A stretch of 31,195 nucleotides of DNA from assembly GCA_963668695.2 (NCBI GenBank), contig CAXXLQ010000003.1, positions 1 through 31,195 on the forward strand, given 5' to 3'. The notes beneath the pieces are model-generated. The model was not told the origin of the DNA. It did no database searches and saw nothing but the letters and a program-made list of their open reading frames with translations. This DNA comes from Vicinamibacteria bacterium. Its GTDB lineage: Bacteria; Acidobacteriota; Vicinamibacteria; Marinacidobacterales; Marinacidobacteraceae. The position numbers and the translations under genes were made by a program. Positions 4,745 through 18,803 of the stretch are shown piece after piece; positions within the stretch are counted from its first letter, which is position 1, and each line of letters begins with the position of its first letter.

Positions 4745-4920
4745 GCCGCGATGCCGGCCGGAGGTCGCGTTCCCTGGCCTGTGCATCGCGCGAGGCCCAG
4801 CAGCGACACGCGTTTCGCGGCCCTGGGGGCCGCGGTGCCGGTCTGAAGGCCCCCACCGGGAGAACTGGCCGGCGTTCCCTGCCCTACGCGCCATGGTGCC
4901 GGCCGGCGGCCGGCGGTCCC
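4745..4920 (-). repeat. Cluster of three REP-like palindromic repeats (consensus on minus strand GGGAACGCCGGCCTTCAGGCCGGCA-CGCGGCC); the middle copy carries the 16-nt unit
   Basis: Copies at ~4745..4774, 4829..4879 and 4897..4920; homologous to 13700..13809. Confidence 0.7.
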
Positions 4921-4935
4921 GGCCCAGCCGGGCCG

Positions 4936-5655
4936 TCAGTCCGTGGGGAGTTCGTCCTTCAGGGCGGCGTTCGCGATGCGGGTGACACGGCGGATCAGGT
5001 AGAAGGTGGCGAGGAGTCCGAGGATGGTGAGCGCCGCGGACCAGGAAAAGCTCTCCGTAGCGAGGGTTGCGCCGGCCCTGGCCGCGGCCCCCAAATGGGC
5101 AAAGAAGCAGGCTCCCACCGGGGCCGCGAGGAAGGAACCAAGCGCGTAGTTCCGGAAGCGCACCGGGGTCGTCGCCCAGCCGAAGTTCTGGAACGCGAAG
5201 GGGAAAAGCGGCGAGAGCCGGGTGAGGCACACCGTGCGGACACCGGCGTCGCCGAGCGCGGCAAGGATCCGGCTCACCGACCGGAACCGTCCGAGCCATG
5301 GCGCAAGCCACCGCCGGAGAAACAGCCTCCCGACCGCGAAGGCGGCGAGCGAACCGAGGAACGTCCCCAGGGTGGCATAGACCATCCCCGGCCCCAGGCC
5401 GAACAAGAATCCGGCGGCGAGACAAAAGACCGTGTTCGGCAGCGCGAACGCGACCAGGAGCACGTGCACGAGAACCAGCGCCACCGGACTCGTCGGGATC
5501 CACTCCGGCGGCAGGAACGGCTCGTCTCCTGCCCCGCCGAAGAGCAGCGGCAGCAGCAGGACGTTCAGAACGAACAGGATCCAGAGCGCCGGCTGCCAGA
5601 AGCGCCGAACCAGCCCTCGGACCCCCTTCTCCCCGGAATCGGGGTCAGAGGTCAA
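4936..5655 (-). CDS. TVP38/TMEM64 (VTT/DedA superfamily) membrane protein
   Basis: LAAGFLFG, TLGTFLGSLAAFAVGR, RLSPLFPFAFQNFGWA and VRFRNYALGS motifs; TTG start overlapping the mmsA stop (TTGA). Confidence 0.85.
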   Translation of the reverse strand: MTSDPDSGEKGVRGLVRRFWQPALWILFVLNVLLLPLLFGGAGDEPFLPPEWIPTSPVALVLVHVLLVAFALPNTVFCLAAGFLFGLGPGMVYATLGTFLGSLAAFAVGRLFLRRWLAPWLGRFRSVSRILAALGDAGVRTVCLTRLSPLFPFAFQNFGWATTPVRFRNYALGSFLAAPVGACFFAHLGAAARAGATLATESFSWSAALTILGLLATFYLIRRVTRIANAALKDELPTD

Positions 5656-7133
5656 AAGCGCTTCGAGGCGTCCCGGGGCCAGCGCTCCACGACGACTTTC
5701 GTCTGAGTGTAGAACTCGATCGCGTGCGCGCCCTGCGCGTGCAGGTCTCCGAAGAAGCTGCCGCGCCAGCCGCTGAAGGGGAAATATGCCATCGGGGCGG
5801 CCACTCCGACGTTGATCCCCACGTTCCCGGTGAGAACCTCGTGGCGGAAGCGGCGGGCGGCGCGGCCGTCGTTCGTGAAGAGGCACGCCATGTTGCCGAA
5901 CTCGCCGCCGTTCACGAAGGCGACCGCGTCCTCGATGGAGTCCACCCGGATGATGCCGAGCACCGGCCCGAAGATCTCGGTGCGGGCGATCTCTCCCTCG
6001 GCCGGTAGTCCGTCCAGCACCGTCGGACGCACGAAGAAGCCGTCCTCGAGACCCGGGACCCGGGCTCCCCGGCCGTCCACCACCGCCCGGGCGTCCTCCC
6101 GATCCACGGCCTGACCGATCAGCCCTTCGATGCGCTCGCGGCTCTCCTCCCGGATCACCGGACCCATGTCCACCGCCTCGTCGAGCCCGGAACCCACCAC
6201 CCGGCTCTCGGCGGCGGCGCTCACCAGGTCCCGGAAGGGTTCATGGGCGCCGCCCACGGTGATCGCCAAAGACGCGGCCAGACACCGCTGACCCGCGCAC
6301 CCGAAGGCGCTCTCGGCCACCGTCCCGACCGCCGCCTCGATGTCGGCGTCTTCGAGCACCACCACCGGGTTCTTGGCCCCGCCCTGGCATTGGACGCGTT
6401 TCCCGTTGCCGGCAGCCTGCGCGTAGACGGCCCGGGCCACCGGAGAAGAGCCGACGAAACTCACCGCGGCGACGTCCGGATGCTCCAGCAGCGCGGAGAC
6501 CGCCTCCCGCCCGCCGTGGATGACCTGCACCACCCCAGGGGGGAATCCCGCCTCCGTGAGGAGCTGCGTCACCCACTGCATCGTGAGCGGCGTCTTCTCG
6601 GAAGGCTTCATGACCACCGTGTTGCCGCAGGCGAGCGCGTAGGGCAGAAACCAGAACGGGATCATCGCGGGGAAGTTGAAGGGCGCGATCACCGCCACCA
6701 CCCCGACCGGCTGGCGGATCATGAACTCGTCGATCCCGCGGGCGATGTCCTCCAGCACCCGGCCCTGCATCAGCGAGGGGATCCCGCAGGCCACCTCCAC
6801 GTTTTCAATGGCCCGCCGCAACTCGCCGCGGGACTCGGCCAGCGTCTTGCCGCACTCGGTGGTCACGACTCTCGAGATTTCCTCGAAATCGCGCTCGAGG
6901 AGGGCCTTCAATCGGAAAAGCGGCTGCACCCGGTCGCCGGGCGGCGTCTCCCGCCACTCGCGAAGCGCGTCCCGGGCGCTCGCCACCGCGCGGCCCACAT
7001 CCTTGGGTCCGGACAGCGGAATCCGGAACAGGATCTCCCCGGTCGCGGGGTTGAGAACCGGCAGGGTCTCGGAGGCCGACGGCGCGAGATAGCTACCGCC
7101 GATAAAGTTGGGCAGGGTCGCGGTTTCGGCCAT
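5652..7133 (-). CDS. mmsA: CoA-acylating methylmalonate-semialdehyde dehydrogenase
   Basis: APFNFPAMIPFW, KPSEKTP, VSFVGSS, QCQGGAKN, AFGCAGQRC, EIFGPV, GINVGVAAPMAYFPFSGWRGSFFGDLH; 493 aa from ATG 7133. Confidence 0.95.
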   Translation of the reverse strand: MAETATLPNFIGGSYLAPSASETLPVLNPATGEILFRIPLSGPKDVGRAVASARDALREWRETPPGDRVQPLFRLKALLERDFEEISRVVTTECGKTLAESRGELRRAIENVEVACGIPSLMQGRVLEDIARGIDEFMIRQPVGVVAVIAPFNFPAMIPFWFLPYALACGNTVVMKPSEKTPLTMQWVTQLLTEAGFPPGVVQVIHGGREAVSALLEHPDVAAVSFVGSSPVARAVYAQAAGNGKRVQCQGGAKNPVVVLEDADIEAAVGTVAESAFGCAGQRCLAASLAITVGGAHEPFRDLVSAAAESRVVGSGLDEAVDMGPVIREESRERIEGLIGQAVDREDARAVVDGRGARVPGLEDGFFVRPTVLDGLPAEGEIARTEIFGPVLGIIRVDSIEDAVAFVNGGEFGNMACLFTNDGRAARRFRHEVLTGNVGINVGVAAPMAYFPFSGWRGSFFGDLHAQGAHAIEFYTQTKVVVERWPRDASKRF

Positions 7134-7163
7134 GTTCGTTCGCGCGTAGGATACGCGCGCGAC

Positions 7164-16709: not shown

Positions 16710-16849
16710 TCCAGAACGAAACCGCCGACTCGTTGACCCCCCGGGCGGCTGTCCTATCATCCCGGCCATCGCGGAGGCGGGAGCTTTACCGGGAAGGTCC
16801 GGTCGTCCTCGGACCAATTCGCGGGGGACCAAACGCAAAGGGGAACATC

Positions 16850-17866
16850 GTGCGCATCGGCATCAACGGATTCGGCAGGATCGGCCGGAACATCTTCCGC
16901 GCAGTCCAGGACGATCAGGACATCGAGATCGTCGCTGTGAACGACCTCACGGATCCCGCCACCCTGGCCCACCTGCTGAAACATGATTCGGTCTCCGGTG
17001 CGCTGCCGGGCACCGTGCGCGCCGAGGGGAACGAGATCGTCGTTATCTCGCCGGACGGACAGGAAACCCGGATCGAAGTCCTCAGCGAACGCGATCCAGC
17101 CGCCCTTCCCTGGGGTCGTCTCGGAGTGGAGATCGTCGTCGAGTCCACCGGGATCTTCACGAAGCGCGAGGACGCCTCGAAGCACCTCGCCGCCGGCGCC
17201 AGGAAGGTCATCATCTCGGCGCCTGCCAAGGGTGAGGACCTGACCGTCGTGATGGGCGTAAACGAAGACCGCTACGACCCGGAATCCCATCACATCCTTT
17301 CGAACGCATCCTGCACCACGAACTGTCTCGCGCCGGTGGTCAAGGTCCTCCACGAGACGTTCGGCCTGAAAAAGGGAGTGATGACCACCATCCACTCCTA
17401 CACGAACGATCAGCGCCTGCTCGACCTCCCCCACTCGGACCTGAGGAGGGCCCGGGCCGCGGGCCTGAACATGATCCCGACCTCCACCGGTGCCGCCAAG
17501 GCGGTTACCAAGGTCCTCCCCGAGCTCGAAGGACGGCTCGACGGGATCGCGGTTCGGGTCCCGACGCCGAACGTCTCCCTCACCGATCTGACCGCCTTCC
17601 TCGAGCGGCCGGCAAGCGCGGAAGAAGTGAACGAAGCACTCACGGCTGCCGCCGAGGGGCCCCTCCGCGGCATCCTTCAGGTCTCAACCGAACCGCTGGT
17701 TTCCATTGACTTCCAGGGAAACCCTCACTCGTCCATCGTGGACGCACCGTTCACCAAGGTCGTGGACGGCGACGCCGTCAAGATCCTCGCCTGGTACGAC
17801 AACGAGTGGGGCTTCTCCTGCCGGGTTCGGGACCTGATCCACCACCTCGGCGCCCAGGAGAGTTAG
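16850..17866 (+). CDS. gap: Type I glyceraldehyde-3-phosphate dehydrogenase
   Basis: [32 protein letters not shown] start after an AAGGGG RBS. Confidence 0.98.
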
Positions 17867-17913
17867 GCAGAACTGACCGGGAGACCGGGACGAGCCATTG
17901 GCCCACGACACCA

Positions 17914-18803
17914 GTCAATGGAACGCCGGTATCGCAATCGCGACCATACCGGCCGCAAAAACGATGATCCCATTGCGGATGGCGGCAAAGCTCACTGCAA
18001 GTGCGTTGGTCATGATCAGGGCGATTCGCTGATTCTGCTCTAGCAGCCTGTGGATAAAGTGGCGTGAGTGCCGAGGCTGGCCAGTTCTCCCGGTGGGGGC
18101 GAGGCGCCCGGCTGACAAGGCGCGCGAGGGAGGAATACCGGGTGTATTTCGACCGAAGCGCAACGATGAGGGCCGCGAAGCGGCACGTTTCAGCCGGGAT
18201 GCATCGCCCGCCGAACGCCGCGTGACTTTGTCCACAGGCTGCTAGGTAGAAGAGTCTTGTCGCGCGCAGTCCGACATCGTCAAGATGCAGATGATCCGGG
18301 GGCGCCGGCGCCCAGACCTTGCGAACATCGAGGACTTCGAAGGCGAAGAAGCCGCCTGAGATGAAATAGATCCACCCAAGGAGAATTGCGGCATATCCGA
18401 TTTGGCCCGACAATGCCGACGCTGGCCTCGCGACATGAGACGCCGGTTCCGAAAGGAGGCCAAACAGCGCGGTGGCGATGGCCGCGGCCAGCGAAATCGC
18501 CACCAAATTCGTCCGCGCCTTGGCTTCTATGGAGTTCCTACGCTCCCGCTCTCGATCCTCGAACTGCTCCAGAACCGGATCCGTGAGGCGCGAAGCAAGC
18601 TCGTGCCGGGTGGCAACAAGGGCGTGCATGTCGTCGTCACGAACCTGCGTTTCCTCCCTGATTTCCCGCCGTAGCGAGTAGTGGAGGATGGCTTGGGCCG
18701 TTACGGTGTGGAAGGTCCGGGCAAACCAGCGCCCGAGGCTTCGAAGCCGTTTCGCGATTCGTCCTCGCTCAGCCAAGCCGCGATTGCATGCGCAACATCC
18801 CAT
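17914..18803 (-). pseudogene. 3-TM membrane protein interrupted by a MITE
   Basis: Removing 18043..18244 restores the frame ...ATRLFYL-EQNQRIALIMTNALAVSFAAIRNGIIVFAAGMVAIAIPAFH*; three hydrophobic segments; start uncertain. Confidence 0.75.
18043..18242 (+). mobile_element. MITE copy 5 (monomer) with one 16-nt unit, inserted in a CDS
   Basis: GCAGCCTGTGGATAAAGT...ACTTTGTCCACAGGCTGC flanked by duplicated TA (in CTAG context). Confidence 0.9.

Follow-up and report, generated by a model that had tools for sequence, protein, structure and literature searches.

A probable very small insertional repeat in a Vicinamibacteria genome: a 20-nt block that enters hairpin repeats and is a predicted landing site of IS110-family elements

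Repeats shorter than ~30 nt are usually viewed as static motifs or as products of selection. Cyanobacterial small dispersed repeats (SDRs) are reportedly ~21–27 nt long, dispersed and nested in other repeats, and are said to have been proposed as mobile by Elhai et al. in 2008; we know of no enzyme that serves them. One of these, SDR5, inserts at the short palindrome HIP1, according to passages of PMC5861425. The dRS3 repeat of Neisseria (~20 bp, with 6-bp terminal inverted repeats around a variable centre) is present in hundreds of copies, flanks short segments in strain-variable intergenic mosaics (Neisseria intergenic mosaic elements, NIME) and is an integration site of a mobile element with a recombinase of the IS110/Piv type, as stated in the relevant parts of PMC1797815. 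Repetitive extragenic palindromes (REPs) are known targets of insertion sequences (IS) of the IS110 family, and for IS621 a rule of left and right target guides (LTG/RTG) is given in the same excerpts of PMC11208160. Here we analysed a 31,195-nt stretch of DNA from a Vicinamibacteria bacterium (GenBank assembly GCA_963668695.2, contig CAXXLQ010000003.1; hereafter the window), which is the entire contig C3 of the genome under study (G000), and a short sequence repeated in it, the 16-mer CAGTTCTCCCGGTGGG. In this repeat, called here the unit, a 20-nt block is shown to arrive whole, and its behaviour is closest to that of dRS3/NIME repeats and SDRs.

The 16-mer is the core of a longer conserved block. 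A logo built from the flanks of 1,324 genome copies gave G-G-(C/G)-C on the 5' side and G-G-C on the 3' side; the full unit was defined as the 20-nt block C-CAGTTCTCCCGGTGGG-GGC, which usually has GG just before it. The size of 16 nt given by an earlier, sequence-only reading of the window thus holds for the core, while the conserved block is longer. We consider it moderately probable that the unit is a very small insertional repeat, i.e. a fixed 20-nt block added as one piece, which lengthens its host by 18 or 19 nt, the net gain registered per unit. The block enters small GC-rich palindromes and hairpin stems, where it replaces 0–3 bases, most often a dinucleotide. The hosts entered are of at least four unrelated kinds: a 187-bp miniature inverted-repeat transposable element (MITE) at five or more positions, several families of REP-like hairpins, the unit's own copies, and unique DNA, a coding gene among it. 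The bulk of the ~1,300 genomic copies is passive, riding on the transposing MITE and on duplicated modules, with exchange of filled and empty states. Most of the copy number therefore needs no writer, such as the enzyme acting in trans that the sequence-only reading had proposed.

Thirteen perfect 16-mers and one copy with two mismatches (13721–13736, minus strand) were found in the window, with coordinates and strands exactly as first listed, against a chance expectation of 0.02 (100 dinucleotide shuffles, none of which reached 14). The count over the whole assembly (4.10 Mb in 4 contigs, 91.7% complete) gave 1,325 perfect copies (670 on the plus and 655 on the minus strand), 1,596 copies with at most one mismatch and 1,813 with at most three; these genome-wide numbers are ~8% too high, since contigs C1 and C3 and a terminal part of C4 duplicate haplotype sequence that is present elsewhere in the assembly. 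The identity of C3 and C1 to the matching parts of C4 is about 99.5% in most blocks. The window is an alternative haplotype of C4:3505137-3538141 (identity 97.6–99.7%), C1 is that of C4:304184-421223, and C4:9354-148038 is repeated at C4:3775642-3913787. All 14 copies of the window lie in repeats, namely in REP-like hairpins (4852 and 13721), in the MITEs at 9507–9740 and 18044–18241, and in the array at 12305–12971. Their reported absence from coding sequence is correct for the window but not for the genome, where one copy stands in frame in an AcrB-family gene. Genome-wide, 128 of the 1,325 units fall inside predicted coding sequence, while 68% of the genome is called coding by the same crude open reading frame (ORF) caller. 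Strand or replichore bias is absent (45+/38- and 27+/26- for copies outside MITEs).

The 187-bp host has the features of a MITE, i.e. inverted ends and a CTAG, TTAA or TTAG duplication. In contrast, the unit replaces 0–3 nt and has neither a consistent target duplication nor inverted ends, which agrees with the earlier remark that it carries no real terminal inverted repeats. Paired MITE ends gave a ladder of lengths, 187+18n: 187 (n = 51), 205/206 (31), 223/224 (26), 241/242 (29), 259/260 (14) and 277/278 (9). When 189 MITEs were aligned to the 187-nt unit-free consensus, the units were assigned to positions P1a (~39), P1b (47), P2 (76–79), P3 (123) and P4 (158), of which P1b can hold a single unit or two to four in tandem (period 18 nt). 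About 49 combinations of fill states were registered, and 66 of the 189 elements were empty at all positions. The corresponding features of the window are as follows.

3069..3430, plus strand: unit-free composite MITE, every fill position empty, with a 53-nt terminal-module duplication that contains no unit
~4837–4873: REP-like hairpin GCCGGTC-TGAA-GG(block)CCGGC, host of the unit at 4849..4868
4849..4868, minus strand: unit block (GCC + CCCACCGGGAGAACTG + G) in the 3' arm of the REP-like hairpin
9507..9740, plus strand: MITE with CTAG duplication at 9503–9506 and 9741–9744, units at P1a, P3 and P4, P2 empty
9544..9563, plus strand: unit block at P1a, in the MITE 9507..9740
9646..9665, plus strand: unit block at P3, left arm of an inverted pair with 9696–9715
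9696..9715, minus strand: unit block at P4, in the MITE 9507..9740
12305..12509, minus strand: divergent TTAG-flanked MITE beside tRNA-Asp, with tandem units 12432–12447 and 12450–12465 at P1b
12514..12971, plus strand: composite array of MITE modules with eight units, cores including 12540+, 12611+, 12707+, 12763-, 12862+ and 12918-
13718..13737, minus strand: decayed unit with two mismatches in the REP-like hairpin GCCGGCC-TTCA-GGCC(unit)GGC
18044..18241, plus strand: CTAG-flanked MITE with one unit at P1a (18081–18100), other positions empty
19469..19778, plus strand: unit-free composite MITE with two P2 sites (ATA at ~19541–19543 and 19671–19673)

The unit-free alleles noticed earlier are thus real, being the composite MITEs at 3069–3430 and ~19469–19778. 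At the level of junctions, an empty paralogue exists for 163 of the 451 exact contexts (the block being taken as 20 nt), and the filler of the empty site is, by context, GT (55), GC (42), T (33), CC (21), C (18) and others. At P2, 21 nt stand in place of ATA. Alternatively, the fills of REPs and of P1a amount to the 16-mer with GGC duplicated (+19), a reading made possible by a natural variant that has the matching base. Bases missing from the filled alleles (ATA, GT, GA, T, CG) are present at the empty sites, which are therefore not simple deletions of filled ones; this contradicts the alternative, raised together with the first description, that empty alleles were derived by deletion. Slippage deletion was also rejected as their source, the predicted pre-insertion word at P2 occurring 0 times. 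MITEs of several genera have identical empty-site sequence, for instance GGAATACC at P2.

Clustering of unit contexts gave 192, of which 124 are singletons, while ~1,000 copies belong to ~10 MITE contexts, two of which hold 286 and 283. Most singleton hosts are REP-like and consist of the head GGGAACGCC, a hairpin with a 7-bp stem, ATCGC and a second, variable hairpin; the unit may occupy an arm, the head or the place next to the hairpin. Unlike a REP, the unit is not itself one of the REP-like hairpins of this genome but is inserted into them. The arms of unfilled hairpins (223 found) are nearly always perfectly complementary, and in filled hairpins GGCC beside the unit faces GACC; the bases at its flanks are thus brought along or imposed by the block itself. 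In the relative G008 the REP orthologous to the hairpin near 4844 has the plain arm GACCGGC. A different MITE of ~480 bp, with ends reading CCCAACTTCGCCA..., sits in the loop of that hairpin in G008, with TGAA on both sides. A strict search, in which 14-mers with at most two occurrences were counted as unique, left only five C4 units with both 40-nt flanks at least 90% unique, all of them in degenerate REP-like contexts. Inside the MITEs of G000, 278 of 325 unit blocks are perfect (85.5%), whereas 16-column windows of the host are perfect in 26% of the 189 elements on average (median 20%, maximum 84%); units are thus younger or more constrained than their hosts.

The unit together with its flanks (26 nt) does not fold by itself: the energy is -2.7 kcal/mol (z = +0.57), and 139 of 200 shuffles fold equally well or better. 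Inverted pairs of units form 20-bp stems (z = -6.6 and -6.8); the pair 9646..9665/9696..9715 folds at -34.9 kcal/mol (z = -6.8). Adjacent units of opposite orientation number 205 pairs at spacings of 49, 52, 56 or 67 nt, and tandem 18-nt arrays of 2–4 units contain 61 adjacent pairs. A one-base variant, CAGTCCTCCCGGTGGG, occurs in 172 copies, nearly all of which are the second unit of a P1b tandem, and this distribution points to amplification of one MITE subfamily. The period of the terminal module is 53 nt without a unit (3069–3430) and 71 nt with the P4 unit (12540–12700), and 106 adjacent direct pairs with the 71-nt period were counted genome-wide. Recombination between units is not needed as the origin of the 71-nt arrays, since the 53-nt duplication exists in a unit-free MITE. 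Units enclose MITE segments of 33–55 nt. They resemble dRS3/NIME in flanking many short segments in variable arrays, judged from spacings and from differences between haplotypes and species, and from the description in PMC1797815. Unlike dRS3 as presented there, the unit is a fixed asymmetric 16–20-mer, with no terminal inverted repeats and no fold of its own, and, unlike in NIME, tandem module arrays form here without units and the phylum is Acidobacteriota. With REP/REPIN sequences and the bacterial interspersed mosaic elements (BIMEs) of E. coli it shares short length, abundance, intergenic location, mosaic arrangement and inverted doublets, but it is no palindrome, and no gene for a REP-associated tyrosine transposase (RAYT) was found in the 91.7% complete G000. 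The idea that the unit halves are the ends of a longer IS was rejected: lone left or right 8-mers are almost all point variants, and the halves never bound a longer element.

Other repeated sequences share these hosts or their surroundings. A second insert of 88–90 nt (GCTTCCGGAGCGGGGCG...CATCTCT...) recurs in several MITE copies at consensus positions 150–154; it is also present at the locus near tRNA-Asp in the relative G001 and has tandem arrays of its own elsewhere, e.g. C4:1628938-1629458. Unit-free tandem arrays of 11–25 copies with a period of ~60–70 nt, whose words contain GACATGTCGC or GGAACTCCACGCTG, were found at C4:574340-575937, 2554831-2555641, 2887535-2888558 and 3896183-3897065.

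Occupancy was compared between the haplotypes and with related genomes (the relatives named in this text are G001, G004, G008, G009, G010, G014, G018 and G020). Both P2 sites of the MITE at 19469–19778 are empty in C3 and filled in C4:3524226-3524862, with the neighbouring private variants retained; this MITE is missing at the orthologous locus in G004 and G014, and public run X1 has one contig without a MITE at 19462–19785. Near 12908, C4 has one extra unit at a P1b site that is unoccupied in C3, one unit of C1 is missing from C4, and the decayed unit at 13718..13737 appears in the C4 haplotype as a one-mismatch version with a 16-nt duplication beside it. The MITE at 9507–9740, with its three units, is missing at the orthologous site of G001, which is 97% identical in the neighbouring gene; it was therefore transposed recently with the units aboard. 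The 12305..12509 MITE and its tandem pair 12432/12450 are common to G001, the composite array 12514..12971 is missing there, and G009 has a unit-free 187-bp MITE at the orthologous tRNA-Asp site. Four public sponge-metagenome runs have contigs whose ends consist of unit sequence, at P1a, P1b, P2 and P4, and the unit is consequently no assembly artefact; these runs were examined as contigs that break at the MITE, so that fill states are not assignable to the window's own locus.

A polarised gain was registered outside repeats. In G000 (both haplotypes) and in G001 a conserved transporter gene of the AcrB family (Pfam ACR_tran, E = 7.8e-60, with an open frame) contains an in-frame +18 unit. Of the 12 genomes aligned from the genus, 10 are without it (GAGCCCG-CG-CGGGATG or variants); four further matches were left unaligned, three with lengths that fit absence and one ambiguous. 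The filled site reads GAGCCCG-GCCCCCACCGGGAGAACTGG-CGGGATG, and the empty core CCCGCGCGGG is a perfect 10-nt palindrome. Judging from these alignments, the block was gained here in unique DNA, with replacement of the central CG of CCCGCGCGGG. Homology of the flanks is far too short for ordinary gene conversion to explain the insert. Replacement of the centre of a short palindrome is reminiscent of SDR5 at HIP1 as described in excerpts of PMC5861425, a resemblance in behaviour only, the sequence of the unit and the phylum being unrelated to those of SDRs. Gain of a whole block, including in frame in a gene, does not appear in the passages of PMC1797815 on dRS3. A second insertion at a unique locus, consisting of the unit and ~24 nt, is common to G000, G001, G004 and G008 and missing from four other genomes.

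Within the genus all 15 genomes contain the exact 16-mer (5 to 665 copies). Among other genera of the family five of nine genomes do (1 to 226 copies), and none of the 16 genomes from the remaining two families of the order does; the reversed pattern, used as a control, gave 0 matches in every genome. High counts (557–1,325) are confined to G000, G001 (605), G004 and G008, which are mutual closest relatives. Low counts were obtained even for assemblies of one or two contigs (6 in G010, 55 in G014), hence variation in copy number is not merely an effect of assembly. In a scan of species representatives the multi-copy loci carried titles of Vicinamibacteria-type acidobacterial metagenome-assembled genomes; single matches in other taxa are estimated to be at chance level, and seven single hits in viral contigs were likewise taken as chance. 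Two other genera have the same MITE family with units elsewhere, e.g. GAC/GA/GGCGCG and GATGC/AT/CCCGG (slashes mark the insertion point and replaced bases), and one genus has an old, decayed unit fixed at P4; in these genera other hairpin repeats host units as well. Forms composed of a partial and a full unit fit insertion into the CCGG/T site of another unit; such self-nesting was seen only in G018 and 0 times in G000. A master copy in a conserved gene was not found, the single copy of G020 being also inside a MITE at P2. The ladder of lengths, unit-free MITEs at orthologous and paralogous sites, genera filled at different positions, differences between haplotypes and the polarised gain in unique coding DNA bear out the earlier view that the unit is an acquired insert and not part of the host consensus.

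The unit is also used by IS elements with recombinases of the IS110 family (domains DEDD_Tnp_IS110 and Transposase_20). The genome under study has an IS110-family locus at C4:482107-483900 and one intact gene of the type called here IS110-A, located in a plain REP hairpin. Full-length copies of IS110-A (>90% identity) are limited to G000, G004 and G008, a 55-aa match with 73% identity being present in G001, and all 13 copies examined in the three genomes have the same site in the REP 3' arm, GGAGGTC^CGGCGTTCC. A second type, IS110-B, is 42–44% identical to IS110-A and has six copies in G014, five in G009 and three in G004, located in REP heads, in one REP arm and at MITE position P4. In all 14 the left flank reads ...GCC-CC/TATA... 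and the right flank ...AGT/CC-ACCGGGAGAA(CTGG)..., the slash marking the element boundary; the flanks joined together give the minus strand of the unit. The unit thus abuts the right end of IS110-B in 14 of 14 copies and is cut inside, at the CC core. The site of G000 orthologous to one of the G004 copies has an intact unit and no IS, and two decayed IS110-B copies kept by G000 both split units.

When the left ends, which are non-coding, were aligned for seven elements belonging to four types, a conserved two-loop fold emerged; the variable arms of its loops correspond to the left flank plus core and to the reverse complement of core plus right flank. The predicted guides are:

IS110 type A: ACCGGAGG and TCCGGCGT, matching its own REP target
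IS110 type B: GAGCCCC and TCCACCG (CGGTGG is the reverse complement of CC-ACCG), matching the unit
IS110 type C: GGCGTTCC and TCCAAGC, matching its own REP target
IS110 type D: ATGGAGCGC and CCGGACTC, matching its own REP target

Guide segments covary with the flanks in all four types, and the type B variants of G004 (AGGCCCC, CGGCCCC) track their own flanks. The predicted guides of IS110-B read GRGCC-CC-ACCG, that is the end of the unit plus its flank, and on the unit this RNA, predicted from sequence, obeys the LTG/RTG rule given for IS621 in passages of PMC11208160. A search of six IS110 loci against Rfam gave no match. From this correspondence the unit is a programmed landing site of IS110-B, presumably addressed through the predicted bridge RNA. 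The matching of guide and target, together with the IS-free intact unit at the orthologous site, indicates that the unit is the target of IS110-B; the match to an IS terminus that the sequence-only reading thought of is there, but the unit is not a remnant of it. Its origin as a right-end remnant of IS110-B was rejected on the same two grounds and because in one copy nothing but the core-proximal part of the flank is retained. Targeting by IS110-B accounts for the use of the unit and not for its origin. In hosting integration of IS110-family elements the unit is like dRS3 in the account given by parts of PMC1797815, while the link of an SDR-like repeat to an RNA-guided IS is new as far as we have seen. 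The four IS110 types belong to one bacterial family, and besides the unit their predicted targets are the 3' arm of the REP, its tail CGGCGTTCC and its head ATGGAGCGCC.

As to how new sites are written, we tentatively propose short-patch templated copying of an existing unit rather than cut-and-paste transposition, a possibility to which we give less than an even chance. A break or stall at the tip of a hairpin or palindrome during repair or replication would allow an existing unit to be copied into the tip by template switching or by end-joining with templated filler. Such a patch is favoured because the boundaries of the block are constant while the chemistry of junctions is variable, because targets are structural and not sequence-specific, and because transposase-type ends and duplications are missing, as is strand bias.

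Several points weigh against an insertional repeat written in this way. There is no single junction rule: REPs and P1a can be read as gaining 19 nt (the 16-mer and a 3-nt duplication), P1b can show a clean gain of 18 nt, ATA is replaced at P2 and a dinucleotide at other sites. Templated patching predicts that some inserts bring extra donor flank. Only two insertions in unique DNA were found, the second of which is complex (unit and ~24 nt), while polymorphism of MITE sites could mostly be explained by non-allelic gene conversion, since the filled as well as the empty allele exists in multiple copies. Passive copying by itself does not account for a 16-mer that is identical from genus to genus. 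The figure of 128 coding copies depends on the crude ORF caller, and neither a source gene nor a template RNA nor a writing enzyme was identified in G000.

If no dedicated mechanism exists, a few illegitimate events would have been followed by transposition of the carrier, tandem duplication and gene conversion, and the copies would be merely young. Concentration of ~1,000 of the 1,325 copies in ~10 MITE contexts, the MITE seen transposed with its units, the 71-nt arrays that mirror the unit-free 53-nt module duplication and the scarcity of C4 units with unique flanks on both sides (five) all fit such a history. We nevertheless regard it as rather unlikely, given at least 15–20 distinct primary contexts across genera, among them genus-specific positions, self-nesting and the in-frame insert in a unique gene without flank homology. 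The same 20-nt boundaries recur in unrelated contexts, and perfect units persist in genera whose MITEs are at least 10% divergent, while the fixed P4 copy of one genus decayed.

It is unlikely, too, that an IS110-family bridge recombinase writes the unit in trans, by means of a tiny single-stranded circle or of half-match recombination at hairpins. IS110 elements already prefer hairpins, the IS110-A site lies within 1 nt of the unit position in REP arms, IS110-B cuts inside the unit at the CC core, and the fills of REPs and P1a can be read as left target-CC-(17 nt)-CC-right target, which resembles duplication of a core. Single-stranded circles and donor-only recognition or half-site recombination are reported for IS621 in the abstract of a 2026 preprint. 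The genomes with full-length IS110-A are, together with G001 and its fragment, those with high copy numbers of the unit. However, this co-occurrence is confined to one clade and is therefore phylogenetically confounded, and G001 has 605 units with only the IS110-A fragment and no IS110-B hit. The ends of the unit are unlike the donor ends of all four IS110 types, every left end of which starts with TATA, and at most MITE sites a dinucleotide is replaced and the flanking "cores" are unequal. An IS110-type recombinase remains the one concrete candidate writer. A bolder combination, which we find doubtful, would make the unit the smallest mobile DNA described in bacteria, an 18–20-nt element that lacks ends and is copied into palindrome tips by a system of this symbiont lineage acting in trans. 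Its best candidate writer would be an IS110-type recombinase (through a single-stranded mini-circle or half-site) or else an oligonucleotide-templated one, and the guides of RNA-guided IS would have evolved to use the unit as a safe harbour.

Maintenance of the unit as a functional recognition sequence, such as a DNA-uptake signal or a protein site, seems improbable to us and would explain its exactness but not its insertion; filled alleles would then be spread by selection or by biased uptake. The 16-mer is exact across the genera of the family, mostly intergenic and free of strand or replichore bias, and frequent inverted pairs form 20-bp stems, an arrangement that resembles uptake sequences located in terminators. 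The uptake signals known so far originate through point mutations and are frequent inside genes, whereas the unit arrives as a block, and a range from 1 to 1,325 copies among complete or nearly complete relatives is hard to fit to an essential site. Deposition of the oligomer by an RNA-templated reverse transcriptase or a HUH/RAYT strand transferase, to which reiterative synthesis of 18-nt tandem arrays of 2–4 units and the preference for hairpins would be suited, is extremely unlikely and close to refuted for G000: there is no lagging-strand bias, and profile searches of this 91.7% complete genome gave 0 hits for RVT_1, 0 hits for Y1_Tnp/RAYT (PF01797; controls rang in 6 of 14 genomes) and nothing over the cut-off for the zinc-ribbon family of TnpB, while positive controls rang in each case. 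The positive controls for Y2_Tnp gave no signal. The reverse transcriptase and the HUH/RAYT transferase were among the enzymes first suggested by the sequence-only reading, which also listed a Cas1-like gene among those to look for. Cas1 was rejected as well: the sole Cas1 gene (C4:3284095-3284739) adjoins an ordinary CRISPR array of 43 repeats (C4:3280876-3283451) with an unrelated repeat and 0 units inside, so that the unit is no CRISPR repeat of this genome. It thus lacks the defining features of REP/RAYT elements, MITEs and CRISPR repeats. DDE_Tnp_1 gave seven hits in G000, which may include the parent element of the MITE.

Returning to insertion of the block as one piece, the multiplication of the smallest dispersed repeats (dRS3, SDRs, BIME motifs) is now directly testable in one lineage, where four high-copy genomes can be compared with many low-copy ones. 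The same family provides a natural case of IS110 bridge-RNA guides diversified onto four abundant repeat targets, which bears on the choice of safe landing sites. In these sponge symbionts the ~1,300 exact 20-mers and their 20-bp inverted pairs have consequences for assembly and strain typing and probably also for the termination of transcription. Searches for literature on Marinacidobacterium and on the SDR5 repeat in Nostoc punctiforme found none, the unit sequence itself not having been searched.

Among other features of the window, the small adjoining ORFs at 13071–13346 and 13390–13692 match the N-terminal half (profile positions 1–93) and the C-terminal half (97–179) of DUF507, respectively, and by this partition the pair represents a putative split or two-gene form of DUF507. 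The two largest ORFs (6243–9506, DUF5916/CBM9-like, and 24218–27469, Sortilin-Vps10/BNR-repeat) have no connection with the repeats.

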